A stretch of DNA of 64,000 nucleotides from an uncultured Chloroflexia bacterium (lineage in GTDB: Bacteria > Chloroflexota > Limnocylindria > Limnocylindrales > CSP1-4): assembly GCA_963731635.1 (NCBI GenBank), contig CAVSWB010000001.1, forward strand, positions 73,679 through 137,678. Direction: 5' to 3'. Within the stretch, counting starts at the first letter, position 1. Every line of letters starts with the position of its first letter. The notes under the pieces are model-generated. The model did not search any database, was not told the origin of the DNA, and saw only the letters and a program-made list of their open reading frames with translations. The position numbers and the translations under genes are program-made. Below, piece by piece: positions 3,079 through 28,061 of this stretch.

Positions 3079-3123
3079 GTGACGGTGCGCAACATAGCGC
3101 AGCACAACTCAGGAGAGACTAGC

Positions 3124-3831
3124 GTGTTTCATCAGGACAATGGGCGGGGACAAGCCAGAGGCTGGCCGGGCCGCCCAGCAGATTCACCGATCGGGGCAGT
3201 CGGCTTCCGACATCACCACACGGACGAAGAGCGCGGCCCCGGCTTTCGCGGTCCCTGGGGCCCGCACGAAGGCGGTCACGCACATGGACGCGGCGGCCGC
3301 GGCCAGGGTTGGATTCCCAGGGACTTTGGTTTCGGTGCCGGGCGCGGGCCGATGGTGCGCCGCGGCGACGTTCGAACGGCCATCCTGACCCTGCTCGCCG
3401 AAGAGCCGATGCACGGATATCAGATGATCCAGCGGCTCGGCGAGCGCAGCGGGGGCATGTGGCGCCCGAGCGCCGGTTCCGTCTATCCCACCCTCCAGCA
3501 GCTCGAGGACGAGGGGCTGGTCAAAGGCGAGGAGCGCGATGGACGAAAGGTCTTCGCGCTGACCGACGAAGGCCGAAACGTCGCCCGGCAATCCGCCGGC
3601 AGTCCGGCACCGTGGGAGATGCCCGGCGCTGAGGAAACGACGGGTCTGTACGGACAGTTCCGGCCGCTCGCCGCCGCCGTGGCACAGGTATCGCGGGTCG
3701 GTAGTTCCGAGACGCTGGCGAAGGCTCAGGCGATCCTCATGGAGGCGCGGCGATCGCTCTACCGGCTGCTCGCCGAGGACCCCGAACAGGACCCGCCGGC
3801 CGCCGAGCAAGACCGCACGACGGCTCGGTAG
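3124..3831 (+). CDS. PadR-family transcriptional regulator with Gly/His/Arg-rich N-terminal extension
   Basis: Winged-helix core VRTAILTLLAEEPMHGYQMIQRLGERSGGMWRPSAGSVYPTLQQLEDEGLV is the PadR signature. AGGAGAG RBS lies 7 nt before the GTG at 3124. The alternative start at 3079 is possible. Confidence 0.85.
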   Translation: MFHQDNGRGQARGWPGRPADSPIGAVGFRHHHTDEERGPGFRGPWGPHEGGHAHGRGGRGQGWIPRDFGFGAGRGPMVRRGDVRTAILTLLAEEPMHGYQMIQRLGERSGGMWRPSAGSVYPTLQQLEDEGLVKGEERDGRKVFALTDEGRNVARQSAGSPAPWEMPGAEETTGLYGQFRPLAAAVAQVSRVGSSETLAKAQAILMEARRSLYRLLAEDPEQDPPAAEQDRTTAR

Positions 3832-7656: not shown

Positions 7657-8562
7657 TCAGGCGGCGGGCACAGGTTCGTTTGTCCCGGCGGTGGCAGGGC
7701 TCGGCTCGGTAGGACCTCCCGCGGCCTCTTCGGGATGGCCTCGCACCCACCAATGACGCACGAAGATGGCGACGATTGCGGCTGCGGCCGCGCTCAGGCC
7801 CACGACCTGGGCGGTGGCGAGCCCGAAGAAGGTCCAGTTCCAGCCGCTGCGTAGCGTCTCGAGAAGACTCCGTTCGAGGCCGTACCAGACGAAGTAGATG
7901 AGGCCGACGTCGCCGGCTATGAGCAGGCGGCGGCGCGACGTGAACCGGCGCCACAGCAGGAGCATCACCCCGACCCCGAGCAGGCTCAGCACCGACTCAT
8001 ACAGGAAGAGCGGGGTGAAATGCTGACCGAGCGTCGCCGTTGGGCTGGAGCCCGCCGGACAGGCGAATTCGGCCACGCGGTACTGGCACTGGATGGCGAT
8101 GCCCCAGGGAAGGTTGGTCGGCGGCCCGTAGAGCTCCTGGTTCATGAAGTTGCCCCACCGGCCGACGGCCTGGGCCAGCAGGACGCACGGCACGACTATG
8201 TCCGCCCAGCGCCAGAACGACAGATGCATCCGTCGCGCGTACCAGACAATCGCGAGCATGCCCGTGAAGAGGCCGCCGTAGACGCCCAGGCCGCTGTAGG
8301 GCGGCAGCACGATCTGCGCCAGGTGGTTCTGGTAGTAGGCCCACTGGTCGATGACGTGATAGGCCCGGCCACCGATCAGGGCCGCGACCGCGACGATGAT
8401 CAGGCCGTCGATGAGCATGTCGGTGCGCTCTCCGCGCTGACGAGCCAGACGGAAGGCGAGCCAGGTGCCGGCGATGATCGCGGCGACGTAGGCGATGCCG
8501 TACCAGCGGATCTCGAGCGGGCCCAGCGCGAGCGCAATTGGATTGGGCGTGAAGTTGATCAT
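7657..8562 (-). CDS. lgt: Prolipoprotein diacylglyceryl transferase
   Basis: N-terminus LGPLEIRWYGIAYVAAIIAG, the motifs GGRAYHV and GRWGNFMNQELYG, and multiple TM helices. Confidence 0.9.
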   Translation of the reverse strand: MINFTPNPIALALGPLEIRWYGIAYVAAIIAGTWLAFRLARQRGERTDMLIDGLIIVAVAALIGGRAYHVIDQWAYYQNHLAQIVLPPYSGLGVYGGLFTGMLAIVWYARRMHLSFWRWADIVVPCVLLAQAVGRWGNFMNQELYGPPTNLPWGIAIQCQYRVAEFACPAGSSPTATLGQHFTPLFLYESVLSLLGVGVMLLLWRRFTSRRRLLIAGDVGLIYFVWYGLERSLLETLRSGWNWTFFGLATAQVVGLSAAAAAIVAIFVRHWWVRGHPEEAAGGPTEPSPATAGTNEPVPAA

Positions 8563-8682: not shown

Positions 8683-8746
8683 TTGACAGCGTCTTGGTTC
8701 CGATGTAGATATATCCATGCACCAGATGTATTCATACTGGACGCAT
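8683..8746 (+). promoter_or_regulatory. Candidate promoter and operator of the arsR-led sulfur/Hdr-like operon
   Basis: TTGACA at 8683-8688, a 17-nt spacer, then TAGATA at 8706-8711, inside an AT-rich island. An imperfect inverted repeat follows directly: ATGCACCAG (8717-8725), 11 nt, CTGGACGCAT (8737-8746). Confidence 0.5.
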
Positions 8747-8856
8747 AGATCGCCAGGGTTGCGAGGCACCACGTGCGCAAGCAAGGGTTGGGCATGTCGA
8801 TATTCGAGCGAGCTTTCGCGGAACTGCGGCAGGCCAGCCGGGCGGAGGTCTGAACG

Positions 8857-9273
8857 ATGCTTCGTCAAGCCGACGGCATCTACGGTTTACAGGCTTACAT
8901 TCTCAAGACGATTGCCAGTCCGCGTCGCCTGGAGCTGATCCACTACCTGGCGGAGTCCGGCCCGGTCGAAGTGCGCTGTCTGGCCGAGCAGTTCGGCATG
9001 ACTCAGCCCGCGGCTTCGCAGCATCTATCTGCACTTCGGACGGCCGGCCTGGTCGAGCCGATCCGCGACGGGCGCGAGGTCCGCTATCGGCTCGTCGACC
9101 CCGAAATCGCGGCTGCCTGCAACCTCATGCGACAGGTGCTGATGCGCCGGATTGCCCACATGGGCGACATGGCTGCGTCGTTCTCCACTCCGACGCCCGA
9201 GTCCCAGGAGCTGACGCCATCGATGGCTGCGGGACCGTCACCCACGAACAGCGAGGAAGCATTTCATGGCTGA
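8857..9273 (+). CDS. ArsR/SmtB-family transcriptional regulator
   Basis: Core RRLELIHYLAESGPVEVRCLAEQFGMTQPAASQHLSALRTAGLVEPIRDGREVRYRL. GGAGG RBS. Two Cys residues (Cys41, Cys88). The 3' end overlaps the dsrE-like start by 8 nt. Confidence 0.9.
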   Translation: MLRQADGIYGLQAYILKTIASPRRLELIHYLAESGPVEVRCLAEQFGMTQPAASQHLSALRTAGLVEPIRDGREVRYRLVDPEIAAACNLMRQVLMRRIAHMGDMAASFSTPTPESQELTPSMAAGPSPTNSEEAFHG

Positions 9274-9628
9274 GAAGATCGTGATCATGGTCACACACGG
9301 GCTGGACCACCCGGAGCACGTTTCCATCCCGTTCGTGATGGCCGTTGCCGCGCTGGCCTCCGACGTGGAGGTCGTGATGGGGCTGCAGGCGGACGGCGTG
9401 GAAGTTGCGGTCAAGGGTGCCGCCGACTCCGTCACCGCGGAGGGCTTTCCCCCCTTGACCAAGCTCCTGGCGGACTACGCCGAATTGGGCGGCAGGTTGC
9501 TGCTCTGCGGCCCCTGCGTGAAGTCGCGCCAGATCGACGCGGCAGATCTGCTCGACAACTCCGAGGTCGTCGCTGCAGCCCGCTTCGTCGCCGAAATCAC
9601 CTCCGCCACCAACGCCCTCGTTTACTAG
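9266..9628 (+). CDS. dsrE: DsrE/DsrF-like sulfur-relay family protein
   Basis: About 120 aa. KIVIMVTHGLDHPEHVSIPFVMA...LLLCGPCVKSRQI...ARFV matches the DsrE-fold pattern (Pfam DsrE/DsrF family, from memory). Confidence 0.75.
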   Translation: MAEKIVIMVTHGLDHPEHVSIPFVMAVAALASDVEVVMGLQADGVEVAVKGAADSVTAEGFPPLTKLLADYAELGGRLLLCGPCVKSRQIDAADLLDNSEVVAAARFVAEITSATNALVY

Positions 9629-9639
9629 GAGTCACACCG

Positions 9640-9906
9640 ATGACAACCGCACTGACCAATTCCGAGATCGCCGCCGTCGCTGCAGCGAAGATCGTGGACG
9701 CCCGCGGAAGCGCCTGCCCCGGCCCCCTGCTCGAAGCCAAGAAGGGCATTGCCACCGTCTCGGTCGGCTCCGTGCTCGAGATCTGGTCGAGCGATCCGGT
9801 CACGAAGTCCGATATCGGCGCATGGTCGGGCAAAGTCGGACACGAGTTCCTGGGATTTGCGACCGCCGACGGCTACGACCGAGTCTTCGTGCGCCGCAAG
9901 AAGTAA
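9640..9906 (+). CDS. tusA: TusA/SirA-like sulfur carrier protein
   Basis: 88 aa with the diagnostic DARGSACPGPLLEAKK (Cys-Pro-x-Pro) motif. AGGAG RBS. Confidence 0.85.
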   Translation: MTTALTNSEIAAVAAAKIVDARGSACPGPLLEAKKGIATVSVGSVLEIWSSDPVTKSDIGAWSGKVGHEFLGFATADGYDRVFVRRKK

Positions 9907-9976
9907 CCGCCGATCTGCGGGCGCCCCACCTGCATCGGGTGCCCGCAGACCTTCTGGAATTGGCCCGGGAGAACGA

Positions 9977-10414
9977 ATGACTGGCACTGCGATAGAGGCG
10001 CCGACCACCAGGATGCTGGTGATCGCGACGCTCTTGTGCTCTTACCCGGGGATCGACGCGACGGGGCAGGCCCACATGGAATACCCGCCCAACACCTACG
10101 TCATCCCTACCCCCGACCCGGTCATGTTTCCCGAGTCCTTCTACATGCACTGCTTCGAAAAGGGCATCGACGGCATCCTGATCGCCTCGTGCGGAACTGA
10201 CAGTCCGTACGAAGGCTCGTATGAGCAACTCGCCGCACGCATCCCGAAGGTCTACGCCCAGATGAAGGCGCGGGGCATAAGCATCCGCCGCATCAAACTG
10301 ACGGCGATCTGCAGCGTCTGCACCAAGGCATTCCTCAAGGAAGTCGCCGACATGGAAGCCGTTCTGGCCGAGCTCGGGCCCGTCAGCGGCGAGATCGCGG
10401 CAGCAGGCGCGTGA
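9977..10414 (+). CDS. MvhD/FlpD-like (methyl-viologen-reducing hydrogenase delta subunit fold) protein, apparently Cys-depleted
   Basis: CSYPGIDATGQAHMEYPPNTYVI....GIDGILIASCG....ARGISIRRIKL follows the MvhD pattern. The start was trimmed to ATG 9977 (GGGAGA RBS), because the longer ORF overlaps tusA. The stop overlaps the next start. Confidence 0.65.
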   Translation: MTGTAIEAPTTRMLVIATLLCSYPGIDATGQAHMEYPPNTYVIPTPDPVMFPESFYMHCFEKGIDGILIASCGTDSPYEGSYEQLAARIPKVYAQMKARGISIRRIKLTAICSVCTKAFLKEVADMEAVLAELGPVSGEIAAAGA

Positions 10415-11799
10415 TGGAGCAGCACATGGATACCGACGTCCTCGTCGTCGGCGGCGGCATCGCCGGTCTGCAATCCGCCCTGGATCTGGCCGACCGCGGC
10501 TACAGCGTCCTGCTGGTGGAGCGCGAGGCCAGCATCGGCGGCAAGATGATCGCCCTCTCCAAGGTCTTCCCGACCATGGACTGCGCGAGCTGCATCACCA
10601 CACCGCGCATGTCTTCGGCGGCGCACCACGACAACATCACCACCTGGACCTACACCGACGTCGACCGCATCACGCCCGACGGCGACGCGTTCACGGCAAA
10701 GCTGACGCGCAAGGTCCGCTATGTCATCGAGGACCTGTGCATCGGTTGCCGGCTGTGCGAGTACGCCTGCCCGGTCGAACTGCCCCACGAATTCGAGGGC
10801 AACCTGGGAGCCCGCCGGGCGGTCTACATCCCGTTCGGAACGGCCATCCCGCAGAAGGCCCTGATCGACATCGATGCCTGCGTCTACTGCGGCAAATGCG
10901 AGAAAGCCTGCCCAACCGACGCCATCGACTTCGGTCAGGAACCGATCGAGGTCACAGCGAACGCTCGATCCGTCGTCCTCGCCACGGGCTTCGAGACCAC
11001 GCCCCTGGATGCCAAGAAGGAATACCAGGGCGGCAAGGCGGCCAATGTCATAAGCGCGCTGGACATGGAACGGCTCCTCTCCCCGAACGGCCCATACGGT
11101 CGTGTCCTTCGGCCGTCGGACGGCAAGATTCCCGAGAACGTCGCCTACGTTCAGTGCGCGGGTTCGCGGGACGAGACTCTCGGGGTGCCCTACTGCTCGC
11201 GCGTCTGCTGCATGTACGCCATCAAGCAGACGATGCTGCTCTCGGGCTCGCTGCCGCTCGCGGACATCACCGTCTACTACATGGACATCCGCGCCTTCGG
11301 CAAGGGCTACGAGCAGTTCTATCAGACCGCCCGATCGATGGGCATCAACTTCGTCAAGGCGAAGGTGGCCCGGATCGAGGAGCAGCCGGACGGCGATCTC
11401 AGACTCCGAGTCGAGATCATCGAAGAGGACGGCCGTGTCACCGAGAACGTCCACGACCTCGTCGTCCTGTCGGTCGGACTGAAGCCCGGCGACGATCCGC
11501 GGCGCTTCATCGGCGTCGATCTGGACCAGTACGGGTTCGTCGCCTCGCCGGATCCCAAGCTCGACGCAACGCTTACGAGCCTCCCCGGCGTCGCCGCCGC
11601 AGGCACGGCCATCGGCCCGAAGGACATCGTGGACACGATCATGGAAGCGAGCGCCGCCGCCACGAAAGTGGCGACTTACCTCGGCCCGCCGGCCAACTCC
11701 CCTGCCCCGCCCGACGACGGCCTGGACGTTGAAGTCCGTGAGATCAAGGCCGGCGACGCTCTCGCCGTGGCCGGACACGCGGAGGTGGCCCGTGGCTGA
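10411..11799 (+). CDS. hdrA: HdrA-like / QmoA-like FAD and iron-sulfur oxidoreductase (short paralog)
   Basis: FAD-binding VLVVGGGIAGLQSALDLADRGYSVLLVEREASIGGKM. Inserted 2x[4Fe-4S] ferredoxin motifs CIGCRLCEYACP and CVYCGKCEKACP. HdrA-type YVQCAGSRD...YCSRVCCMYAIK. Confidence 0.85.
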   Translation: MMEQHMDTDVLVVGGGIAGLQSALDLADRGYSVLLVEREASIGGKMIALSKVFPTMDCASCITTPRMSSAAHHDNITTWTYTDVDRITPDGDAFTAKLTRKVRYVIEDLCIGCRLCEYACPVELPHEFEGNLGARRAVYIPFGTAIPQKALIDIDACVYCGKCEKACPTDAIDFGQEPIEVTANARSVVLATGFETTPLDAKKEYQGGKAANVISALDMERLLSPNGPYGRVLRPSDGKIPENVAYVQCAGSRDETLGVPYCSRVCCMYAIKQTMLLSGSLPLADITVYYMDIRAFGKGYEQFYQTARSMGINFVKAKVARIEEQPDGDLRLRVEIIEEDGRVTENVHDLVVLSVGLKPGDDPRRFIGVDLDQYGFVASPDPKLDATLTSLPGVAAAGTAIGPKDIVDTIMEASAAATKVATYLGPPANSPAPPDDGLDVEVREIKAGDALAVAGHAEVARG

Positions 11800-13891
11800 G
11801 CAGCGCGCAAAGTCCGAGGCCGCGGACGAGGTAAGGATCGCGCCGGCGGCGACGCCCGAAGCTTGGCCGGCACTGGCCGAGAAGGTCGGCGTCTACGTCT
11901 GCCACTGCGGCGGCAACATCTCCGACGTCGTGGACGTTGACAGGGTCGCCACGGAGGCCGCCGGCCTCGACGGCGTGGCCGTTGCCCGCCACATCATGTT
12001 CATGTGCTCCGACGAAGGCCAGAAGGCGATCGTCGACGACATCGAGGCGCTCGGCCTGGATCGCGTCGTCGTTGCGGCGTGCACTCCCAAGCTCCACGAA
12101 GCCACTTTCCGTCGAGCGCTGCAGCGCGGCGGCATGAACCCATATCTGTTCCTGCCGGCGAACGTCCGCGAGCAGGCGAGCTGGGCTCATCCGCACAGCC
12201 CCAAGGCCGCGACAGAGAAGGCCAGTGCGCTGGTTCGGGCGGCGGTCGCCAAGGCCCAAATGCTCGAGCCGCTGGAAAAGGTCAGCGTCGCGGCCGTCCA
12301 CCGGTCTCTGGTCATCGGCGGCGGCGTGGCCGGTCTTCGGGCTGCGCTCGATCTCGCCCGTCAGGGCCTCGCGGTCGTGCTGGTGGAGAAATCGCCGTTC
12401 CTCGGCGGCAAGGCCACTCAACTGCACACGGTCTTCCCGACGGAGGATCCGGCACGGCCGCTTGTCCACCGCCTCATCGATCAGGTGAAGGCGGAGCCGA
12501 ATCTGACCGTCCTGACCAATACCGAGGTCGTCGGCCTGACCGGCTACGTCGGCGACTTCTCGATCACGCTGCGGACCACGCCGCGCGGCGTCGGCCCCGA
12601 ACTGGCAAATCCCGCGGCGGCGATGGCCGCCTGTCCGGTTCAGGTTGCCAACGAGTTCGACGACGGCATCAGCCGGCGCCGGGCCATCTACCAGCCATAT
12701 CCCGGCTCCGAGCCGAACCTGCCCGCCATCGACTGGAATTCCTGCACCCGCTGCGGCGAATGCGTCACGGCCGCCGGCGGGCGCGGCATCGATCTGGCGA
12801 GCGAGCCGCACGAAATCAAGATCGAGGCCGGGGCAATCGTCCTCGCCACGGGCTTCGACCACTACGAGCCGCGCGTCGGCGAGTACGGCTACGCCACCTC
12901 GCCGCGCGTCCTGACCCTGCCCCAGGTCCACCGCCTGCTCGATCCGGAAGGCCCGACTGCCGGCCGTCTCGAGATCGAAGGCCGCGTCCCCCGCTCCGTC
13001 GCCTTCATCCACTGTGTCGGCAGCCGCCAGATCGAAGGCGTTGACGAGCCGGGCCCCGACGGCAAGCTCCACGAGTACTGCTCGCGGGTGTGCTGCACGG
13101 CCACTCTCCAGGCCGCCAACGAACTCCGCAGGAAGTACCCCAAGACCGCGGTCTACGACCTCTACCGCGACATCAGGACCTACGGCCGCGATCAGGAGCC
13201 GTACTACGTCAACGCCTCCAAGGCCGGTGTCGTCTTCATGCGCTTCGCCAACGACGCCCGCCCCACGGTCCAACTGGCCGACGGCGGCGACTTTCCGCTC
13301 AAGGTGACTGTCACCGACACGCTCACCTTCGGCGCCGAGATCGAAGTCCCGGTCGATCTGGTCGTCCTGAGCGTCGGCGTGATGCCGCGCGACGTCGCCG
13401 GCTTCATCGACATGACCCATGCCCCCGTCGGCGCCGACGGCTTCCTGCTCGAGGTTCATCCGAAGCTTCGCCCGGTCGAGAGCGCCATCCCGGGTCTGCT
13501 CCTTGCCGGCACGGTCCAGGCGCCGATGGATATCACCGAGAGCACCTCGGCGGCCTCCGCGGCGGCGGCCAAGGTGACGGCCCTTCTCGCCAAAGATCAT
13601 GTCGAGATGGAGCCGTTCGTGGCCAAGGTGGACCCGTCGTTGTGCGACGGCTGCGGCTTATGCCTGGACGCCTGCCACTACGCCGGAGCGATCGCCCTTC
13701 AGGATGTCGAGATCGAGGATGGCGTCATCGAGAAACGGGCGTACGTGAACCCGGTGGCCTGCAAGGGCTGCGGTGCCTGCGTCCCGTCCTGTCCGGTCGC
13801 CGCCCTGGACGTGGCCGGCTGGGAGATCGACCAGTACAAGGCCATGATCGATGCGATCACGGCCCAGCCGCTGACCGCAGGAGCCCGCTGA
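11792..13891 (+). CDS. hdrA: HdrA-like / QmoB-like flavo-iron-sulfur oxidoreductase (long paralog)
   Basis: N-terminal VGVYVCHCGGNISDVVD domain. FAD motif LVIGGGVAGLRAALDLARQGLAVVLVEKSPFLGGK. FIHCVGSR...YCSRVCCTATL. C-terminal ferredoxin motifs CDGCGLCLDACH and CKGCGACVPSCP. The GTG at 11792 has a GGAGG RBS and overlaps the previous stop. Confidence 0.85.
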   Translation: MAEQRAKSEAADEVRIAPAATPEAWPALAEKVGVYVCHCGGNISDVVDVDRVATEAAGLDGVAVARHIMFMCSDEGQKAIVDDIEALGLDRVVVAACTPKLHEATFRRALQRGGMNPYLFLPANVREQASWAHPHSPKAATEKASALVRAAVAKAQMLEPLEKVSVAAVHRSLVIGGGVAGLRAALDLARQGLAVVLVEKSPFLGGKATQLHTVFPTEDPARPLVHRLIDQVKAEPNLTVLTNTEVVGLTGYVGDFSITLRTTPRGVGPELANPAAAMAACPVQVANEFDDGISRRRAIYQPYPGSEPNLPAIDWNSCTRCGECVTAAGGRGIDLASEPHEIKIEAGAIVLATGFDHYEPRVGEYGYATSPRVLTLPQVHRLLDPEGPTAGRLEIEGRVPRSVAFIHCVGSRQIEGVDEPGPDGKLHEYCSRVCCTATLQAANELRRKYPKTAVYDLYRDIRTYGRDQEPYYVNASKAGVVFMRFANDARPTVQLADGGDFPLKVTVTDTLTFGAEIEVPVDLVVLSVGVMPRDVAGFIDMTHAPVGADGFLLEVHPKLRPVESAIPGLLLAGTVQAPMDITESTSAASAAAAKVTALLAKDHVEMEPFVAKVDPSLCDGCGLCLDACHYAGAIALQDVEIEDGVIEKRAYVNPVACKGCGACVPSCPVAALDVAGWEIDQYKAMIDAITAQPLTAGAR

Positions 13892-14184
13892 TGGCCTCCC
13901 CGGAAAAGCCCCGGAGCAAGATGCTCGAGCTCAAAGAGCGGCGCGGCCCGGTGTCCCCGGCGCTCCTGGAGTCCGTTCGCCAGAACAACGCCGCCAAATC
14001 GGCGATCAAGAAGTCGCTTGCCGCGGGGCCGCTCACGGTTCCCGAGCTGGCGGAAGCATCGGGTCTGCCGACCAGGACCATCCTCTGGACCGTCACCGCC
14101 ATGCGCAAGTACGGCTCGGTCGTCGAGGACTCCACGGACGGTTCGTACGTCCGCTACGCCCTTGCCGCAAAGGATCCCCGCTGA
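13891..14184 (+). CDS. Small (97 aa) hypothetical protein, possibly winged-helix
   Basis: ATGA overlaps at both ends embed it in the operon. LTVPELAEASGLPTRTILWTVTAMRKYGSVVEDSTDGSYVRYAL looks like an HTH plus wing. No family was recognised. Confidence 0.55.
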   Translation: MASPEKPRSKMLELKERRGPVSPALLESVRQNNAAKSAIKKSLAAGPLTVPELAEASGLPTRTILWTVTAMRKYGSVVEDSTDGSYVRYALAAKDPR

Positions 14185-15353
14185 TGGCCGTGACCGTAGA
14201 TCCGACCCTTCTCCCCGAGATCCAGCGTTACGGCGCCTTCGATGTGGCCGCCTGCTTCAATTGCGGCAACTGCACAGCCGTCTGCCCGCTCAGCGATGAC
14301 AATGCCACGTTCCCGCGGCGGATCATCCGTTACGCCCAGGTGGGCATGAAGGCGGAGCTGCTCGCATCCAAGGAGCTGTGGACCTGCTACTACTGCGGCG
14401 AGTGCTCCGAGACGTGCCCGCGCCAGGCGGAGCCGGGTGAGTTCATGGCCGCGGCGCGCCGCTATGCCATCGCCAGCTACGACAAAACCCGGCTGGCACG
14501 AACGATGTACCTCCAGCCCGTCCTCGGCACCGCGATGGCCGTCATCCTCGCGGCCGTCTTCGCCCTGTTCATGTACGGCGCCCACGGCCCGCAGGACGGC
14601 ACGACGCTGGCGCTCTTCCAGTTCATTCCCTCCGAGTTCATCCACCTCCTCGGACTGGCGGTGATGATCATCGTCGGAGTCGCCGGGCTGGCCGGTCTGG
14701 CGATCATGTCGAGGCGCATTGCCCGCTCCGAAGGCGTCGGATTACGAACCATCTTCGGCGGACGCGCGGCGCTCCGGCGAAGCGGGCGCGCCCTCTGGGT
14801 CGCGCTCGGCATCGAGTCCATCGGTCAGCGACGCTATCGGAAGGACTGCGAAGCGGCGCAGGAGCCGACCGTCTGGTACCGGCGGCGCTGGCTTCTGCAT
14901 GCGCTAACGATGTGGGGTTTCCTGGGTCTCTTCGGTGCGACCATCGCCGACTACGGCCTGGAACTGCTCGGCATCAAGGCAACCGGCACCGCCGTCCCGA
15001 TCTGGTATCCGGTCCGCCTCCTCGGCACAGTCGCCGGCGCCATGCTCGTCTTCGGCGTGACGATGCTGATCCTCAATCGCCTCCAGAAGGCCAATCGGTC
15101 GGTCCGCGAGTCCAAGGCGGCGGATTGGACGCTCCTCTCGCTGCTGTGGCTCACCGGCGTAAGCGGCTTCGTCCTGGAGCTGGCTCTTTACCTGCCGCAA
15201 GCCCCGGCCGGGGGCTACTGGATGTTCCTCTTCCACGTTGCCGTGGCGATGGAACTGGTCCTGCTGGCCCCGTTCATGAAGCTCGCCCACGTGATCTACC
15301 GGCCGGTTGCGCTGTTCTTCTACGCCCTCAAGCCCGCGGCCGACGCCGGCTGA
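14184..15353 (+). CDS. QmoC / HdrC-HdrE-like membrane iron-sulfur protein (N-terminal 2x[4Fe-4S] domain fused to six TM helices with conserved His)
   Basis: CFNCGNCTAVCP and CYYCGECSETCP motifs, followed by six hydrophobic helices. These carry His residues (FIHLLG, LLHALTMWG, FLFHVAV, KLAHVIY) as in NarI/HdrE/DsrM-type cytochrome b subunits. Confidence 0.75.
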   Translation: MAVTVDPTLLPEIQRYGAFDVAACFNCGNCTAVCPLSDDNATFPRRIIRYAQVGMKAELLASKELWTCYYCGECSETCPRQAEPGEFMAAARRYAIASYDKTRLARTMYLQPVLGTAMAVILAAVFALFMYGAHGPQDGTTLALFQFIPSEFIHLLGLAVMIIVGVAGLAGLAIMSRRIARSEGVGLRTIFGGRAALRRSGRALWVALGIESIGQRRYRKDCEAAQEPTVWYRRRWLLHALTMWGFLGLFGATIADYGLELLGIKATGTAVPIWYPVRLLGTVAGAMLVFGVTMLILNRLQKANRSVRESKAADWTLLSLLWLTGVSGFVLELALYLPQAPAGGYWMFLFHVAVAMELVLLAPFMKLAHVIYRPVALFFYALKPAADAG

Positions 15354-15420
15354 CGCCGCTCGACGCAACCGAACGCTCGGCCGGCGTTCAGAATGGGCTT
15401 CCACGCACCCAGGAGAACGA

Positions 15421-15822
15421 ATGCGACTGCTCATCCCGACCAACGACGCCAACGGCGCCAGCGCCGAACTCTCCGGCCACTTCGGCCGCGCGCCGTTCTA
15501 TGCGATTGCCGACACCGAGGCCGACACGGTCGTCGTGGTGGAGAACCCGTCGGTCTCCCACGGACACGGTGGGTGCGTCCCCGCATCGCAGGCCTTCGGC
15601 GAGGGCGGCTACGACGCGGTCGTATGCCAGGGCATCGGCAGAGGTGCGATGGACCGGCTTGCCGAGGCCGGCGTTCCGGTGTACATGTCCGACGGACCCG
15701 ACGTGGCCTCGGCGATCGCGGCCTTCCGCCGCAGCTCGCTGCGCGTCGTCGCCTCTGAGGACGGCTGCTCCGGTTCGGGATCCAGATCCGGTTCGTGCGG
15801 CGGGCACGGACACGACAATTAG
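15421..15822 (+). CDS. NifB/NifX-family (dinitrogenase iron-molybdenum cofactor biosynthesis domain) protein with Cys/Gly/His-rich tail
   Basis: LSGHFGRAPFYAIADTE...VVVVEN...AVVCQGIGRGAMDRLAEAGVPVY matches the NifX/NifB-C domain pattern. The tail is CSGSGSRSGSCGGHGHDN. AGGAGAA RBS. Confidence 0.75.
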   Translation: MRLLIPTNDANGASAELSGHFGRAPFYAIADTEADTVVVVENPSVSHGHGGCVPASQAFGEGGYDAVVCQGIGRGAMDRLAEAGVPVYMSDGPDVASAIAAFRRSSLRVVASEDGCSGSGSRSGSCGGHGHDN

Positions 15823-15848
15823 CAACTGAGGATCGGAGAGGGCGGGAA

Positions 15849-16403
15849 ATGGCGACTAAGCGACGGAACAGAGGCGCGGGCCAGAGCGCCGCACCGGCAA
15901 CGCGCAGCAAGGCGGCGCCGGCCGCGCCGAACCGAGGCAGGCTCTATCTGGCGGTCGGCGGAGCGGTGGTCGCACTCGTGGCCGTGCTCGCGATTAGCTT
16001 CGTTGCTCTCGGCGGCGGCGGCTCCGGTCCCGCGCCGAGCACGGCGTCCGGTGAATCGATCGTTCAGGGCCAGGGCGGCCACTGGACCAGCGTGACCCCC
16101 GACCGGCTCGCCGAGATGCTGACGCACAAGGACTTCACGTTCGTGAACGTCAAGACGCCCTACATCGGCGAGATCGACGGCACGGACCTCTACATTCCTT
16201 ACGATCAGCTGTCAGCCCGGGCGAGTCAGCTTCCGGCCGACAAGTCGGCCAGGATCCTGGTCTATTGCCGCAGCGGGGTCGAAAGCGCCCAGGCCGCCCA
16301 GACGCTACTGAACCTCGGCTATACGAACGTCTGGAATCTCGACGGCGGCATGAACGCCTGGCAATCGTCGGGGCGGACTCTCGTCCAGAAGAACCGGACC
16401 TGA
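15849..16403 (+). CDS. Membrane-anchored rhodanese-domain sulfurtransferase
   Basis: Basic N-terminus, one TM helix (LYLAVGGAVVALVAVLAISFVAL), then a rhodanese domain with active-site loop YCRSGVES and the ending GGMNAW. Confidence 0.85.
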   Translation: MATKRRNRGAGQSAAPATRSKAAPAAPNRGRLYLAVGGAVVALVAVLAISFVALGGGGSGPAPSTASGESIVQGQGGHWTSVTPDRLAEMLTHKDFTFVNVKTPYIGEIDGTDLYIPYDQLSARASQLPADKSARILVYCRSGVESAQAAQTLLNLGYTNVWNLDGGMNAWQSSGRTLVQKNRT

Positions 16404-16471: not shown

Positions 16472-18325
16472 ATGCCAGAACTCAGATCGCGAACCGTCAC
16501 CCACGGACGAAACATGGCCGGCGCTCGGGCCCTGCTCCGAGCGACAGGCGTTGCCAGGGAGGACTTCGGCAAGCCAATCGTCGCCGTCGTCAACAGCTTT
16601 ACCGAGTTCGTGCCGGGCCATACGCACCTGGGGCAGGTCGGCCGGATCGTCGCCGAGGCCGTCAAGGCCGAGGGCGGCATCCCGCTCGAGTTCAACACGA
16701 TCGCCATCGACGACGGCATCGCCATGGGCCACGGCGGGATGCTGTACTCCCTGCCGTCTCGCGACCTCATCGCCGACTCGGTCGAGTACATGGTCAATGC
16801 GCACTGCGCCGACGCGATGATCTGCATCTCCGGCTGCGACAAGATCACCCCCGGCATGCTGATGGCCGCGATGCGCCTCAACATCCCCGCCGTGTTCGTC
16901 GCCGGCGGCCCGATGGAGGGCGGCACGGCCGTCCTGGCCGACGGCTCGGTACGCCAGAGCCTCAACCTGATCTCCGCGATGACCGACGCGATCGACGGCG
17001 AGATGTCCGACGAGGATCTCACTCGCATCGAAGAAGCGGCCTGTCCCACCTGCGGTTCGTGCTCGGGGTTGTTCACCGCCAACTCGATGAACTGCCTGGT
17101 GGAGGCCCTCGGCCTCGCCCTGCCGGGTAGCGGCACGACCGTCGCCACTCATACCGCACGCAAGGCACTGTACGAGCAGTCGGGCCGCGCCATCGTGAAA
17201 CTGGCCCGCCGATACTACGACCAGAACGACGCAAGTGTTCTGCCGCGCGCCATCGCATCGCACGCCGCTTTCGAGAACGCAATGTCAGTCGACATCGCCA
17301 TGGGCGGATCGACCAACACCGTCCTCCATCTGCTGGCCGTCGCGCGGGAGGCCGAACTCGACTACACCCTCCGGGACATCGACGCTCTTTCTCGCGATGT
17401 GCCGTGCATCTGCAAGGTGGCGCCGAGCGCCAGATACCTGATGGAAGACGTCCATCGCGCCGGCGGCATGCCGGCGATCCTCGGCGAGCTGGACCGCACC
17501 GGGCTGCTCCGAAAGGACGTTCACGCCATCCACGCCGGGTCCCTGGACGAGTGGCTGAACACCTGGGACGTCCGCGGCGACTCGCCCTCGGCCGAGGCCG
17601 CAGAGTTGTATCGCGCGGCCCCCGGAGGAGTTCGCTCCGCGGCCGCCTTCTCCCAGTCCGAGCTATGGGAAAACCTGGACACGGACGCCGAGGAAGGCTG
17701 CATTCGCGACGCCGCTCATGCCTACTCGCCCGACGGCGGCCTGGCCATTCTGCGAGGCAACCTGTCCGAGGACGGCTGTGTCGTGAAGACCGCCGGAGTC
17801 GACAAGTCCGTCCTGGCCTTCTCCGGACCCGCCGTGGTGGTCGAGTCGCAGGAAGAGGCAGTCGACGTCATTCTCTCCGGACGCATCGTGCCCGGCGACG
17901 TGGTCGTGATCCGGTACGAGGGTCCGCGGGGCGGTCCCGGCATGCAGGAGATGCTCTACCCCACGACATACCTGAAGGGCCGTGGCCTGGGCAAGACCTG
18001 CGCCCTCGTCACCGACGGCCGTTTCTCAGGCGGCACTTCGGGCCTGTCGATCGGGCACGTTTCGCCCGAAGCCGCCGCGGGCGGCGCCATCGCCCTGGTC
18101 GAGGACGGCGACACCATCGTCATCGATATCCCGAACCGCTCGATCCGATTGGACGTCTCCGAGACGGTGCTGGCCGAGCGTCGCGAGCGCCTGGAAGCGA
18201 CCGGCGGCTACACGCCTCGACATCGCGATCGGACCGTTTCGCCCGCCCTGCGCGCCTACGCCCTGATGGCACTGTCCGCGGACAAAGGCGCGGCACGGGA
18301 CCTGAGCCGACTCGAAGCCCAATAG
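16472..18325 (+). CDS. ilvD: Dihydroxy-acid dehydratase
   Basis: 617 aa. [56 protein letters not shown] are IlvD signatures. Confidence 0.95.
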
Positions 18326-18366: not shown

Positions 18367-18588
18367 TCAGCGTCCGCCAGCGATGATCAGCTGCGCCCGC
18401 TCGTTTCTGTTCGGGAAGAGATCGGGCGGCACGGCGTCTTTGCCGAGCGCCACGACGACCTGATGTCGGGCGCATGACGTGTAGTCCGCCAGGCAGTAGC
18501 GCTTCTTGAACAGCGTGGCACTGCCTTCCATGCCCTTCAATCGGTCGTTGAAGAAGGGACAGCCAGGCAAGCAATCGCAGTCAGCCAT
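18367..18588 (-). CDS. Small conserved Cys-rich protein, unknown function
   Basis: 73 aa: MADCDCLPGCPFFNDRLKGMEGSATLFKKRYCLADYTSCARHQVVVALGKDAVPPDLFPN. I recall this pattern (C..GCPFFND ... KKRYC ... CAR ... VPPDLFPN) from unannotated small proteins of diverse bacteria. Confidence 0.6.
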   Translation of the reverse strand: MADCDCLPGCPFFNDRLKGMEGSATLFKKRYCLADYTSCARHQVVVALGKDAVPPDLFPNRNERAQLIIAGGR

Positions 18589-24696: not shown

Positions 24697-25233
24697 TCAG
24701 CCGGCAGTGAGCCCGTCCCGGCGGTGCCGGAGGAGAGTCCAGGCGATATCGGGGTCGTCGACGTCGCGGAGGAGGGACTCCGTCCGGCAGGCGATCGCCG
24801 GTACCAGTTCGCCGCCGCCCAGGCTTGCGCCGTGGGCCGCGAACACCGACATCGCACCATTGCTGACGACGTCGGCCCAGGCGTTGCGGATGCCGGCGCG
24901 CAGGATCAGGAACGCCGCACCTCGCCCGATGACGCGGTCCCGCAAGAAGAGTTCGCCGGCCGCGGCGAGTGCGGCGCGTTCCTCATCGCTTTCCGGGTCC
25001 GGGGACGAAAGCAATGCCAGGAGACCGAACAACGGATGCAGCCACTTGCCGGCGCTGACGTGCAGCGGCAGCCCCGGGTCCGTGCCGGCCTGTACGGCTG
25101 CGAGGGGCCAGAGCGCCATCGTGGCGCCCGACGGCAGCGGCGGGACAACGGCGGGCATTGCAATTCCCGCCGCAACGACCAACGGCTCTGCGATGGGCCG
25201 CGAGCCCGCAACCTGTTCCGATCGCGTGCTCAT
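24697..25233 (-). CDS. Hypothetical protein (178 aa), translationally coupled to the upstream AKR-ferredoxin gene
   Basis: ATGA overlap with the stop of the 25230-26351 gene. Ala/Leu-rich, with no recognisable motif. Confidence 0.5.
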   Translation of the reverse strand: MSTRSEQVAGSRPIAEPLVVAAGIAMPAVVPPLPSGATMALWPLAAVQAGTDPGLPLHVSAGKWLHPLFGLLALLSSPDPESDEERAALAAAGELFLRDRVIGRGAAFLILRAGIRNAWADVVSNGAMSVFAAHGASLGGGELVPAIACRTESLLRDVDDPDIAWTLLRHRRDGLTAG

Positions 25234-26351
25234 GTCCCGGCGAAAGCGGCCGTGACCGCCTTGAGGTGCTCCTTGATCGGGAGCTGCTGGGGGCAGAGTT
25301 CCTCGCAGTTGCCGCACTCGGTACAGGCAGTCGATCGCTCGTCCGGGGCGATCAGGCCGTAGTCGGATTTGACGAGCGCGTCCTGCATGAACATGAAGTA
25401 CGAGTTGTACATGGCGAAGTTGCGCGGAATGTCCACGCCCGAAGGGCAGGGCATGCAGTATCGGCAAGCCGTGCAGTCGATCATGGTCTCGCCCTTGTAG
25501 GCGACGTCCACCGCGTCGACCAGAGCGCGTTCGGCCGGCGTCAGGCTGTCGGCCGGTGCGCTCGAGGCCGTCCGGATGTTCTCCTCGACCTGCTCGATCG
25601 CGCCCATTCCGGAAAGGATCAGCGATACCTCGGGCTGATCCCAGATCCAGCGCAATGCCCATTCAGCCGGCGTCCGCTGCGCCTCGGCGCCGTCCCAGAG
25701 TGCCTGCACCTTCGGCGGAACGCTCCGGGCAAGGCTCCCGCCTCGCAGGGGCTCCATGACGATGACGTCGAGGCCGTGGGCCTTGGCGTAATGGAGACCC
25801 GCACGCCCCGCCTGGAATTCACGATCCAGGTAGTTGTACTGGATCTGGCAGAACTCCCACGAGCCTTCGTCGACGATCCCCTTGAAGACAGGCAAATCGT
25901 CGTGGAAGGAGAAGCCGGCGTGCCGGATCTTGCCAGCCTTCCTGGCCCGTTCCAGGAATTCGAGGGCGTCGTGGCGCCGGGAGTTCTCCCAGTTGCCGGT
26001 GTTGAGGGCGTGAAGCAGATAGAAATCGATCCGGTCGGTATCGAGCCGGGCGAGCTGAGCGTCGAGGTATCGATCGAAGTCGGCCGGCTCCTTCATCAGC
26101 CAGACCGGCGACTTGGTCGCGATGAAGGTGCGATCTCGATAGCCGTCCTTGAGCGCCCTGCCGACGATGCCTTCGCTCTCGCCGTCGTGATAGACCCAGG
26201 CCGTGTCAAGGTAGTTGACGCCGCTGTCGATGGCGTAGCGCAGCATCCGGATCGCCTGGGGCAGATCCACCGCGCCATCCACGACGGGCAGGCGCATCGC
26301 GCCGAAGCCGAGTTGCGAGACCTTCTCTCCTGCCAGTGAGCGGTAGAGCAT
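25230..26351 (-). CDS. Aldo/keto reductase fused to a C-terminal 4Fe-4S ferredoxin-type domain
   Basis: AKR core (LGFGAMRLP, NYLDTAWVYHDGESE, FYLLHAL, IQYNYLD), then CTACRYCMPCP and CTECGNCEELCP. The start was trimmed to MLYRSL at 26351. Confidence 0.85.
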   Translation of the reverse strand: MLYRSLAGEKVSQLGFGAMRLPVVDGAVDLPQAIRMLRYAIDSGVNYLDTAWVYHDGESEGIVGRALKDGYRDRTFIATKSPVWLMKEPADFDRYLDAQLARLDTDRIDFYLLHALNTGNWENSRRHDALEFLERARKAGKIRHAGFSFHDDLPVFKGIVDEGSWEFCQIQYNYLDREFQAGRAGLHYAKAHGLDVIVMEPLRGGSLARSVPPKVQALWDGAEAQRTPAEWALRWIWDQPEVSLILSGMGAIEQVEENIRTASSAPADSLTPAERALVDAVDVAYKGETMIDCTACRYCMPCPSGVDIPRNFAMYNSYFMFMQDALVKSDYGLIAPDERSTACTECGNCEELCPQQLPIKEHLKAVTAAFAGT

Positions 26352-26911
26352 CAGGCTTCGAGCCCGCCCTCGTCGCGTCCGCCGATTCCGGCACCATCCA
26401 GCAGCCGCAGGATCGCGTAGCCGCCCAGACCCATTATGGCGACGCCCGGGATCCCGAGGCGAAGCGCGTCGAGGCCGGCCGCGACGCTGCCGCCACGGAC
26501 GAGGTCGAACCCGAAACCGGCCAGCTGCATCGAGGCCGCGGCCAGAAGAAGCAGCCACAGATTGAGGCGACCGGCCCTGCGAGCGAGGAGACCGGCGATT
26601 GCCGCGATCAGGACCGACTTGGCCAGGACCGTGAGCAGCATTTCCGCGGATGGCATGCCGGTCAGGGCGTAGTTGAGGACCGGCGAGGCCACGGCCGTCA
26701 GAGCGCCCGCGGCAAAACCGAAGCGATAGCCCGCGACGAGGGTGAAGAAGAAGATCGGCAGGAAGATCAATCCGCCTTGCGGGATCGAGTGGACGGCCAT
26801 TGGCGCGACGACATTTCCGGCGGTGAAGACGGCGACAAAGCCGTACAGGCGCAGGTCGCGCAGGCTCAGAACGGATCGCCCGACGGGAACGGAAGACGCG
26901 GTGACGGTCAC
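26351..26911 (-). CDS. Small integral membrane protein, probably an ECF-transporter S-component-like substrate binder
   Basis: 186 aa with five or six TM segments. GGAG RBS and a GTG start. The stop shares 1 nt with the next start. The family call is tentative. Confidence 0.5.
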   Translation of the reverse strand: MTVTASSVPVGRSVLSLRDLRLYGFVAVFTAGNVVAPMAVHSIPQGGLIFLPIFFFTLVAGYRFGFAAGALTAVASPVLNYALTGMPSAEMLLTVLAKSVLIAAIAGLLARRAGRLNLWLLLLAAASMQLAGFGFDLVRGGSVAAGLDALRLGIPGVAIMGLGGYAILRLLDGAGIGGRDEGGLEA

Positions 26912-26990
26912 GTGAGACTCCTGACAGGGATGTCACATTGTATTCGGCGCGCCGGGGTCAAGCCGGGACCGTGGGACAAACCCGCGGGCG

Positions 26991-28061
26991 TCAGGCCGCC
27001 GTCGCCTCATCGTCGAGGCACGGCGCCGAGCCCAGCTCGTCGTAACGCTTCCAGCGGTAGACGAGCGTCGATACGAGCCAGCTGACGAGGAAGAGGCCGA
27101 CGATCGCGCCCCCGAGCAGACCCATGTCGAGCCTCCCGGCAAAACCCCAGATGCCGCCCGACAGACCCAGCTCGGAGCCGATCACGTTCAACGCCTCGAT
27201 GCCGCCGATCACGAAGGCGATCAGGACGGACACCAGGGTGATGTTCAGGTTGTAGTAGAGCTTCCGGATCGGCTTTACGTAGGCCCAGCCGTAAGCCCCC
27301 AGCATCAGCACGCCGTCGGTCGCATCCACGAGGGACATGCCTGCGGCGAACACGGCCGGGAGCAGCAGGATGTACCAGACCGGCACGTGCGAGGCTCCCG
27401 AGGTGGCCGCCAGCCCGAGCAAGGCGACCTCGGAGGCGGTGTCGAAGCCCAGCCCGAACAGAACGCCGAGCGGGTACATGTGCCAGCTCTTGCTGATCAT
27501 CCGGAGTGCGGGGCGGAAGAATTGCGCCAGCAGCCCGCGGTTGGACAGGTAGTCCTCGAGCGACTGCTCGTCGTACGCGCCGCCCGCCGAGACCTTGCGG
27601 AACATCTTGTAGATGTCGAACAGCACCACCAGGTTGATCACGCCGATCATGAGCAGGAAGCTCGCGGACACGGCCGTCCCGATCAGCCCACCGGCGGATC
27701 GGAGCGTGGGCACGTCGCTCACCAGAGCCGCCGAGGCGGCGATGACGACCGACAGGGCCACTACGATCGTGGAGTGGCCGAGCGAGAAAAAGAGGCCGAC
27801 TGCCACAGGCCGGCGACCGTCCTGCATCAGCTTGCGCGTGGAGTTGTCGATGGCCGCGATGTGATCCGCATCGACCGCATGTCGAAGCCCGAACGTGTAG
27901 GCGAGGAACGCGGTCGGAAGCAGGATCGGATACGACGACGAAGCAAGAAGGACGAGACCCCAGGCCGCCACATTGAACACGAGCAGGAAGCCATAGAGTC
28001 GAACGAGCCGATGCCTCAGGTCCGGCGAACCGCGTGAGAGCCGATGTGCCGTGAAGATCAA
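26991..28061 (-). CDS. NiCoT (HoxN/HupN/NixA) family nickel/cobalt transporter
   Basis: Signature RHAVDADHIAAIDN, FFSLGHSTIV and LGFDTASEVALL, with 8 TM-like segments. Confidence 0.9.
   Translation of the reverse strand: MIFTAHRLSRGSPDLRHRLVRLYGFLLVFNVAAWGLVLLASSSYPILLPTAFLAYTFGLRHAVDADHIAAIDNSTRKLMQDGRRPVAVGLFFSLGHSTIVVALSVVIAASAALVSDVPTLRSAGGLIGTAVSASFLLMIGVINLVVLFDIYKMFRKVSAGGAYDEQSLEDYLSNRGLLAQFFRPALRMISKSWHMYPLGVLFGLGFDTASEVALLGLAATSGASHVPVWYILLLPAVFAAGMSLVDATDGVLMLGAYGWAYVKPIRKLYYNLNITLVSVLIAFVIGGIEALNVIGSELGLSGGIWGFAGRLDMGLLGGAIVGLFLVSWLVSTLVYRWKRYDELGSAPCLDDEATAA

Follow-up and report, generated by a model that had tools for sequence, protein, structure and literature searches.

A conserved cluster joining genes for TusA and DsrE sulfur carriers to those for an HdrA pair and a QmoC-like membrane anchor in Chloroflexota and Actinomycetota

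Introduction

Among the described systems that come closest to the gene cluster analyzed here, which lies at 8857–16403 of a 64-kb stretch of DNA from an uncultured Chloroflexia bacterium (contig CAVSWB010000001.1; hereafter, the window), are the Hdr-like sulfur oxidation (sHdr) systems and the Qmo complexes. A characteristic of sulfur oxidizers is the linkage of tusA-dsrE genes to hdr-like clusters (PMC4175335; PMC11094781), and sHdr clusters always contain HdrB-type subunits together with LbpA (PMC4175335; PMC11094781; PMC6776052). Type II sHdr is common in Chloroflexota and Actinobacteriota (PMC11094781), and the Hdr-like sulfur oxidation system of Thermomicrobium roseum is strongly induced during persistence (PMC6776052). 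The type II Qmo complexes of Vulcanisaeta moutnovskia and Ammonifex degensii have A and B subunits that are closer to HdrA than to bacterial Qmo (PMC10504309, PMC8477390). Type II Qmo works with Apr in Vulcanisaeta and Ammonifex; according to a one-sentence mention, it is also present in organisms without Dsr or Apr, where its role is unknown (PMC10504309).

In the window, genes of the sulfur carriers TusA and DsrE adjoin genes for two unequal HdrA paralogs, an MvhD-like protein, and a QmoC-like membrane subunit. The conserved unit consists of eight genes, namely arsR, dsrE, tusA, mvhD, short hdrA, long hdrA, a winged-helix gene, and the qmoC-like gene. The carrier genes are strictly linked to the HdrA–QmoC-type genes across related loci. 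We propose tentatively that the cluster encodes a quinone-linked HdrA complex that would use carrier-bound sulfur as a redox partner.

Results

Gene content and conserved linkage

Ten open reading frames (ORFs) with high third-position G+C follow one another head to tail on the plus strand at 8857–16403 of the window, the G+C content of which is about 68%. They encode, in this order, an ArsR/SmtB-family regulator, a DsrE-family protein, TusA, an MvhD/FlpD-like protein, the short and the long HdrA paralogs, a winged-helix protein, a QmoC-like anchor, a NifX-like protein, and a rhodanese. From 5′ to 3′, the junctions are an overlap of 8 nt, gaps of 11 and 70 nt, overlaps of 4, 8, 1, and 1 nt, and gaps of 67 and 26 nt. 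The ORF coordinates reproduce every junction figure of an earlier, first-pass annotation, which had described ten genes on one strand. Its family assignments (DsrE, TusA, FlpD, HdrA, QmoC, Nitro_FeMo-Co, Rhodanese, and ArsR) were all matched in a search of Pfam and NCBIfam. For eight of the nine operon products looked up, an identical public gene call exists on a contig of 1.42 Mb.

Relatives of the QmoC-like protein with E-values of 1e-10 or lower number more than 2600 in 90% protein clusters and come from soils, peat, permafrost, and lakes. A pattern scan located relatives of the protein in 354 species genomes, chiefly of Limnocylindria-type Chloroflexota, and the best 80 loci among these genomes, taken at one genome per species, make up the synteny survey reported here. 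Upstream genes were scored in the 63 loci with at least 7 kb of upstream sequence, and downstream genes in the 67 loci with at least 5 kb downstream. Most of the best 80 loci belong to metagenome-assembled genomes labeled Chloroflexia, Chloroflexota, or Limnocylindria/Limnocylindrales; eight are from Actinomycetota (Dermatophilaceae, Micrococcales, and others) and one is from Dormibacteraeota, and the few with other taxon labels may reflect binning. The nearest relative, locus L001, encodes a QmoC-like protein that is 93% identical to that of the window.

The survey shows that tusA, mvhD, and a gene of the DsrE family each accompany the complex in all 63 loci scored. This linkage holds in Chloroflexota, in five Actinomycetota loci, and in the Dormibacteraeota locus (L041), each with at least 7 kb of upstream sequence, so that the association of TusA and DsrE with HdrA and QmoC is stronger than first claimed. 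The regulatory gene arsR is present in 54 of 63 loci and is missing from those of Actinomycetota, where a DrsE_2-type gene of the DsrE family is found between mvhD and hdrA (L066) or after qmoC (L078, 11237–11719). The winged-helix gene stands directly 5′ of qmoC in 76 of 77 loci. In L066 (1858–5051), an aminotransferase class V, cysteine-desulfurase-like gene adjoins tusA. In nine loci, a second ArsR gene lies, at most 5 kb from the operon, beside a gene for a TauE/SafE-like membrane protein, called by eye from the sequence, that may be a sulfite exporter (e.g., L001, 14772–16118; L002, 15356–16696; L030, 982–4116).

Two architectures of the complex can be distinguished. In the commoner one (55 of 63 loci), a GltD/NfnB-like NAD(P)-binding module is inserted into the short HdrA, within its inserted-ferredoxin domain (e.g., L083, 5210–7981; L042, 5114–8020), and the long HdrA has lost the inserted-ferredoxin domain altogether. 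The window represents the rarer architecture, which has no GltD-like module (8 of 63 loci).

The HdrA pair and MvhD

Among the NCBIfam models and PDB structures compared, none of which is of QmoA or QmoB, both HdrA paralogs are best matched by HdrA2/HdrA. The short paralog (10411–11799, plus strand; 461–462 amino acids (aa)) matches positions 137–560 of the NCBIfam HdrA2 model with an E-value of 2.1e-139 (465.9 bits), and the long paralog (11792–13891, plus strand; 699 aa) matches positions 1–643 with an E-value of 1.9e-188 (628 bits). Because the latter score falls below the equivalog cut-off (628 vs. 1100), HdrA in this cluster is to be regarded as a homolog, not an ortholog.

The two paralogs are 35% identical to each other and have unequal sets of cofactor ligands. 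Lacking the N-terminal and C-terminal domains, the short HdrA has the FAD domain, the cysteines of DCxxC and CxGSRD...CSRVCC, and an inserted 2x[4Fe-4S] ferredoxin domain that is complete. The long HdrA aligns over residues 30–694 with solved methanogen HdrA chains (517 bits for 8rvu and 507 bits for 5odc), whereas the solved sHdrA structure 6TJR scores 104 bits, against 517 for methanogen HdrA. Still present in the long paralog are the N-terminal four-Cys cluster domain, the cysteines of CxGSR...CSRVCC, and the two clusters of the ferredoxin domain at the C-terminus, while the FPTxDCxxC pair is gone, along with one of the clusters of the inserted ferredoxin domain. The DCxxC cysteines and both inserted-domain clusters are thus kept in the short paralog only. 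Since the cofactor ligands are split unequally, the pair represents an asymmetric version of the methanogen HdrA homodimer. Analysis of cysteine conservation across the relatives revealed no extra conserved Cys pair in either HdrA.

In canonical QmoB, which is long and HdrA-like, an MvhD-like domain is fused at the C-terminus. The long HdrA of the window ends after its C-terminal ferredoxin domain, with no fused MvhD domain, and the description of this protein as QmoB-like in the first-pass annotation proved loose: it is a nearly full-length HdrA of the methanogen type. MvhD is encoded by a separate gene (9977–10414, plus strand; 145 aa), the product of which matches Pfam FlpD (E-value 8.5e-17, 61.8 bits) and solved MvhD chains (E-value 1.8e-9). 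A pair of cysteines, C112-x-x-C115, is present in 69 of 69 orthologs of this protein and is missing from methanogen MvhD. The remaining MvhD cysteines differ between the architectures with and without the GltD-like module.

The QmoC-like anchor and the winged-helix protein

The QmoC-like protein (14184–15353, plus strand; 389 aa) matches the NCBIfam qmoC model (NF038018) over positions 7–360 of 360 with an E-value of 2e-57 and 195.3 bits, the cut-off being 300; it also matches Pfam Nitrate_red_gam (29.4 bits). As the first-pass annotation had stated, it contains two CX2CX2CX3CP motifs and six hydrophobic transmembrane (TM) helices with His residues. The two motifs lie in the N-terminal part, which matches solved HdrC chains, and their eight iron–sulfur (Fe-S) cysteines are invariant. 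Four His residues are invariant as well: H154 and H351 near the outer face of the membrane, and H239 and H369 near the inner face. Judged by the positions of these pairs, the protein has the transmembrane di-heme layout of the NarI/HdrE type. It combines, in a single chain, an HdrC-like 2x[4Fe-4S] domain with a six-TM di-heme b domain, that is, the fused anchor typical of QmoC. Cys222, in the K/R-rich cytoplasmic loop between TM2 and TM3, is present in 79 of 80 family members. The AlphaFold2 (AF2) model of this protein, built from a shallow alignment of 14 sequences, has a mean pLDDT (predicted local distance difference test) of 48.5 and is unusable. A tblastn search for the QmoC-like protein in plasmids gave no match.

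The gene between the long hdrA and qmoC (13891–14184, plus strand; 97 aa) overlaps both neighbors by 1 nt through its start and stop codons. Its product contains no Cys and has no Pfam match; the AF2 model (pLDDT 87) is an ArsR/SmtB-like winged helix, in agreement with the initial description of this ORF, and the best Protein Data Bank (PDB) folds are those of SmtB, NolR, and SqrR, with TM-scores of about 0.5. A DsrD-like identity was considered and rejected, since the fold search returned only generic winged helices of the ArsR/MarR type.

The sulfur carriers

The DsrE-family protein (9266–9628, plus strand; 120 aa) matches Pfam DsrE with an E-value of 1.5e-12 and 48.1 bits (cut-off 22.7) and has the fold and the active-site Cys of this family. 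Its motif C81-x-P-C84 is conserved, with both cysteines present in 45 of 45 orthologs. A single-sequence search of the PDB found nothing for this protein, and the one match of a profile search was the solved DsrE-like protein 3MC3, a Cys of which aligns with C81 and a Ser with C84. Unlike DsrE3A of sHdr systems, in which the cysteines are spaced as Cys-X7-Cys, the window protein has the CxPC spacing; being three residues apart, C81 and C84 may form a resolving or redox-active pair.

TusA (9640–9906, plus strand; 88 aa) matches its Pfam family with an E-value of 1.6e-17 and 63.5 bits (cut-off 28.6), and has both the fold and the Cys-Pro-x-Pro motif of TusA. The CPGP motif reported initially is confirmed as the active site C26-P-G-P, each residue of which is kept in at least 95% of 68 orthologs.

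Partner genes of established systems

The first-pass annotation found no AprBA, HdrB, or LbpA near the operon, and this observation stands. In about 40 further ORFs scanned in the 64-kb window, there was no match to Apr, Sat, Dsr, Sox, SQR, persulfide dioxygenase, HdrB/HdrD, LbpA, or hydrogenase. None of the same partner genes is recurrent within 10 kb of the 80 related loci, as judged by clustering of the called proteins. Likewise, neither HdrB nor MvhAG hydrogenase nor formate dehydrogenase was found in the scanned window ORFs or among the recurrent neighbors. As for the individual domains, the Pfam search revealed no CCG-domain match among the ten operon products, and the CCG-domain Cys pattern does not occur in any of 1459 proteins called from the 80 loci and the window. 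A lipoyl/GcvH-type (LbpA) match is missing from the operon products and the roughly 40 flanking ORFs scanned, although small unscanned ORFs may escape such a search.

The upstream region and ArsR

The operon was initially taken to start at 8683. This position is in fact the TTG of a perfect TTGACA hexamer, and, because an in-frame TAG follows at 8746, the start of arsR is the ATG at 8857. The hexamer opens a candidate promoter and operator, read from the sequence at 8683–8750 on the plus strand: TTGACA (8683–8688) is followed by a 17-nt spacer, TAGATA, and then the motif ATGTATTCATAC...GCATAGAT. The TTGACA element is also kept in L001, and the TATTCAT...GCATA motif is kept in L001, L002, and L004. 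It should be noted that a simple promoter scan flagged no sigma-70 consensus promoter, the candidate at 8683–8750 included, and that a repeat finder detected no inverted repeat 5′ of arsR.

The regulator itself (8857–9273, plus strand; 138 aa, an exact public gene call) matches Pfam HTH_5 (E-value 1.7e-12) and NCBIfam HTH_metalloreg (79.7 bits, cut-off 55). Proven sulfane-sulfur-sensing ArsR repressors have two conserved cysteines, such as Cys50 and Cys116 of sHdrR, which form an intraprotomer sulfur bridge (PMC12423496). In the present family, the one invariant Cys is C88 in helix α5 (55 of 55 orthologs); just 24 of 55 have another one, at position 37 or 41, half of the orthologs have C88 as their sole Cys, and the first Cys of BigR aligns with Tyr in the window protein. 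The assignment of this ArsR as a sensor of the SqrR/BigR/SoxR/sHdrR type was rejected because the two-Cys signature is missing and the sole invariant Cys is located elsewhere. An ArsR-type repressor probably controls the operon from the conserved upstream candidate site.

Accessory genes and neighbors

The last two genes of the operon are lineage-specific accessories. The NifX/NifB-like gene (15421–15822, plus strand) encodes a protein with a Cys/His-rich tail that matches Pfam Nitro_FeMo-Co with an E-value of 1.5e-19 and 70.5 bits. The single-TM rhodanese (15849–16403, plus strand; 184 aa, the form of the public call) matches Pfam Rhodanese with an E-value of 1.5e-12 and 48.2 bits, and has a normal active-site loop, CRSGVES. 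Each of these genes occurs 3′ of qmoC in 4 of 67 loci. Of the ten-gene module first described, therefore, the order recurs in related loci, and the conserved extent is reduced to the eight-gene core. A hemerythrin gene and a PadR gene are found 3′ of qmoC in 48 and 37 of the 67 loci, respectively; in the GltD-carrying form, qmoC is usually followed by both (e.g., L083, 11299–12986; L031, 11238–13944). In the window, a PadR gene is also present upstream of the operon, at 3079–3831.

At the N-terminus of the rhodanese, a K/R-rich segment precedes a single TM helix (residues 34–52), an arrangement that, by the positive-inside rule, probably places its catalytic domain outside the cell. The membrane anchor ascribed to this protein in the first-pass annotation is thereby retained, and its place in the sulfur relay is not: a protein that is probably extracytoplasmic would not be a member of a cytoplasmic relay.

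The operon is flanked by lgt (7657–8562, minus strand) and ilvD (16472–18325). A terminator scan found no convincing terminator after the rhodanese gene, which leaves the 3′ end of the transcript open. Just past ilvD, a 73-aa Cys-rich ORF (MADCDCLPGCPFF...) with coding-like composition lies at 18367–18588 on the minus strand. Farther along the window, an aldo/keto reductase fused to a 4Fe-4S dicluster domain (25233–26936, minus strand) adjoins genes for a NicO nickel/cobalt transporter (26994–28061) and a Fur-family regulator (28187–28654).

Discussion

Proposed function

The reading that we favor is that the cluster encodes a quinone-linked HdrA complex which carries out a confurcating reduction of sulfur bound to DsrE and TusA. 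We assign this statement as a whole a probability of about 0.4; the weaker claim, that DsrE and TusA are redox partners of the complex, appears to us reasonably probable. In the proposed complex, a heterodimer of the two HdrA paralogs would assemble with MvhD on the QmoC-type anchor, in which the HdrC-like 2x[4Fe-4S] domain is fused to a di-heme cytochrome b. The anchor would dock on the HdrA pair as HdrC does, and one electron branch would accordingly end at menaquinone. The inserted ferredoxin domain of the short HdrA would serve as the low-potential branch, since the GltD-like NAD(P) module sits in exactly that domain in 55 of 63 relatives; this branch would lead to ferredoxin in the window complex and to NAD(P), via the GltD-like module, in most relatives. 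The third partner would be sulfur on the co-encoded DsrE (Cys81-x-Pro-Cys84) and TusA (Cys26), because no other conserved candidate is present in the scanned window ORFs or recurrent in the 80 loci.

The CxPC motif of DsrE may, like DsrC, alternate among dithiol, persulfide, and di- or trisulfide states. Menaquinol would be oxidized at the heme b subunit, as in NarI, HdrE, DsrM, and the QmoC of sulfate reducers, and the electrons drawn from it would join low-potential electrons at the flavins of the HdrA pair (confurcation). The combined electrons would then reduce carrier-bound sulfane sulfur, or the di- or trisulfide of DsrE, to free thiols and H2S. Such a complex would be the counterpart of Qmo acting on AprAB, of DsrMK acting on DsrC, and of HdrDE acting on the heterodisulfide. 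Di-heme subunits of the NarI/HdrE type are quinol oxidases in the biochemically characterized cases, and it is because subunits of the NarI/HdrE/DsrM/QmoC type have this activity in characterized systems that we favor a confurcating reductase.

Several points weigh against this interpretation. The direction of electron flow is argued by analogy and is unproven, and the persulfide-to-quinone or bifurcating function suggested by the first-pass annotation is likewise an inference. No subunit has a known site for conversion of S–S bonds: neither a CCG pattern in the proteins called nor an extra conserved Cys pair in HdrA was found. Menaquinol and NAD(P)H average about −200 mV, which is marginal for sulfur and typical disulfides near −270 mV, and the host lineages, mostly aerobic heterotrophs as far as is known, have no obvious need for a large oxygen-sensitive reductase. 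As far as its cysteines indicate, the ArsR regulator is devoid of the two-Cys signature of proven sulfane-sulfur sensors. Finally, the 70-nt gap between tusA and mvhD may divide the operon into two transcription units. That the cluster stands for a new type of respiratory enzyme, a menaquinone-anchored bifurcating or confurcating HdrA complex with DsrE/TusA sulfur as its third partner and no CCG subunit, is in our estimate rather doubtful.

Alternative explanations

The same complex might work in the opposite, oxidative direction. In that case, sulfide, the DsrE dithiol, or the TusA thiol would be oxidized to carrier-bound sulfane sulfur or a disulfide, and the two electrons would part ways at the HdrA flavin by bifurcation, one passing via QmoC to menaquinone and the other to ferredoxin, as in the window, or to NAD(P)+, as in the GltD-carrying form, which would make the complex an energy-conserving alternative to SQR. 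The architecture of the HdrA/MvhD unit is that of a bifurcating one, and by established potentials the reaction would run downhill, as the sulfur/sulfide or thiol couples (near −270 mV) are more negative than menaquinone (about −74 mV) but more positive than ferredoxin or NAD(P), at about −320 mV or lower. Hdr-like sulfur oxidation is, moreover, known in Chloroflexota and Actinobacteriota, including the persistence-induced system of T. roseum, and the second ArsR and TauE-like pair, called from sequence, occurs within 5 kb in nine loci. An oxidative direction is nonetheless unlikely in our view: characterized di-heme subunits of the NarI/HdrE type are quinol oxidases, there is no evident site for oxidation of sulfide or thiols, and SQR does the same job with one protein. 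That no catalytic site for sulfur chemistry was found also speaks for a quite different explanation, under which the carriers are not substrates at all. The complex would then be a general oxidoreductase, acting between ferredoxin or NAD(P)H and menaquinone and possibly bifurcating with a further, third partner, and TusA and DsrE, along with the NifX-like protein or hemerythrin, would build, repair, or regulate Fe-S clusters. The complex is predicted to contain many Fe-S clusters and two hemes; its accessory genes are related to cluster handling or to oxygen and iron (NifX-like here, hemerythrin in 48 of 67 relatives); and a cysteine-desulfurase-like gene stands beside tusA in L066. TusA is also known for pleiotropic cofactor roles in Escherichia coli. 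The strict linkage in 63 of 63 loci and the invariant CxPC of DsrE suggest a direct partner instead, and the rarer form of the complex (8 of 63 loci) has no NAD(P) module, so that NAD(P)H:quinone activity is not the common function. To our knowledge, dedicated pairs of TusA and DsrE have not been described as Fe-S assembly factors, and we consider this explanation improbable.

Two further alternatives would assign the cluster to systems already described. It may be an ordinary Qmo that serves AprBA and Sat encoded elsewhere in the genome, with the tusA and dsrE genes being mere neighbors; some family members are annotated as QmoC in IMG, the NCBIfam qmoC model is matched over its full length, and type II Qmo does pair with Apr in Vulcanisaeta and Ammonifex (PMC10504309). 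However, at 195 bits the qmoC match does not reach the equivalog cut-off of 300, MvhD and the long HdrA are separate proteins, the linkage to tusA and dsrE is invariant, and apr and sat are missing from the ORFs scanned in the 64-kb window and are not recurrent within 10 kb of the 80 loci. Given that the hosts are, as far as is known, neither sulfate reducers nor sulfur oxidizers of the Apr type, this explanation is very improbable. The other alternative is a divergent sHdr-type system that would oxidize carrier-bound sulfane sulfur to sulfite. The linkage of tusA and dsrE to hdrA and the presence of an ArsR-type regulator do resemble shdr clusters, and TauE-like genes are located nearby in nine loci. 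We regard such a system as exceedingly improbable, since sHdrB/CCG subunits and LbpA were not found among the ORFs scanned in the window or in the related loci, and the HdrA is methanogen-like (517 bits) and not sHdrA-like (104 bits for 6TJR).

Significance

The module is widespread in Limnocylindria and Actinomycetota, lineages that are not thought of as sulfur metabolizers. If the complex does trade electrons between carrier-bound sulfur and menaquinone, it would constitute a new junction of cytoplasmic sulfur trafficking with respiration. It would also be a new use of the HdrA flavin pair, one without the HdrB active site, and would bear on how modules of flavin-based bifurcation are re-used. 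Aerobic Chloroflexota and Actinomycetota of soils and freshwater would gain a sulfur-linked reaction for energy conservation or redox balancing outside the Dsr, Sox, sHdr, SQR, and Psr schemes. There is a practical side to the matter, too. The public labels of family members are inconsistent, ranging over ferredoxin, nitrate reductase gamma subunit, QmoC, heterodisulfide reductase, coenzyme F420-reducing hydrogenase delta subunit, and predicted transcriptional regulator; in metagenomes, such automatic labels could be mistaken for signs of sulfate reduction or methanogenesis. Culturable strains exist in some of the Actinomycetota orders in which the cluster occurs, which makes the proposal directly testable.

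Comparison with known systems

The cluster is like canonical QmoABC of sulfate reducers and Chlorobi in encoding a short HdrA, a long HdrA, and a membrane QmoC, with a predicted set of FAD, Fe-S clusters, and two hemes b, and in its probable link to quinone. It is unlike QmoABC in its qmoC score (195 vs. 300), in its unfused MvhD, in its methanogen-like long subunit, and in having no AprBA/Sat nearby. Three defining features, namely the qmoC score, the fused MvhD, and AprBA/Sat genes in the ORFs scanned, are thus missing, and the cluster is not canonical QmoABC.

With methanogenic HdrABC–MvhAGD (5ODC, 8RVU, 7BKB), the cluster shares the set of HdrA domains (N-terminal, flavin, inserted-ferredoxin, and C-terminal ferredoxin), MvhD, and the HdrC-like 2x[4Fe-4S] protein. 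In contrast to the methanogenic complex, there is neither HdrB nor a hydrogenase, and two unequal paralogs take the place of the HdrA homodimer. The fusion of HdrC with a membrane cytochrome b would, in addition, let the high-potential branch end at quinone. The cluster resembles the sHdr–LbpA systems of types I and II in the tight linkage of tusA and a dsrE-family gene to hdrA and in the ArsR-type regulators nearby, but it contains no sHdrB1/B2/B3 (CCG) subunits, sHdrC pair, LbpA, or EtfAB; its HdrA is not of the sHdrA type, and its complex is membrane-anchored via cytochrome b. It is therefore neither sHdr–LbpA, given the absence of HdrB and LbpA, nor HdrABC–MvhAGD, given the absence of HdrB and MvhAG. 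A likeness of another kind exists to DsrMK(JOP)–DsrC and HdrDE, where electrons pass from a NarI-type di-heme b subunit through a cytoplasmic Fe-S protein to a bound S–S or S–S–S; the two-Cys DsrE would here take the part of DsrC. The cytoplasmic partner differs, being an HdrA pair with MvhD instead of a CCG-domain protein such as DsrK or HdrD.

The first-pass annotation regarded the module as undescribed. Literature searches with combinations of HdrA, TusA, DsrE, and QmoC, with Qmo-like terms, and with taxon names found no description of the cluster, but type II Qmo without Dsr or Apr has already been mentioned (PMC10504309), and the claim holds to that extent only. All of the modules are known; it is their combination, its conservation, and its host range that are undescribed. 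Set beside type II Qmo by published descriptions, the cluster likewise has two HdrA-like flavoproteins and a QmoC-type anchor of HdrC and cytochrome b. It differs from type II Qmo in having no linkage to apr or sat, in a separate mvhD that is placed first, in the winged-helix gene between hdrA and qmoC, in the invariant link to tusA, dsrE, and arsR, and in the GltD-like NAD(P) module of most members. Most plausibly, the cluster would be a branch of the poorly defined type II Qmo that is linked to sulfur carriers, or else its sister group.

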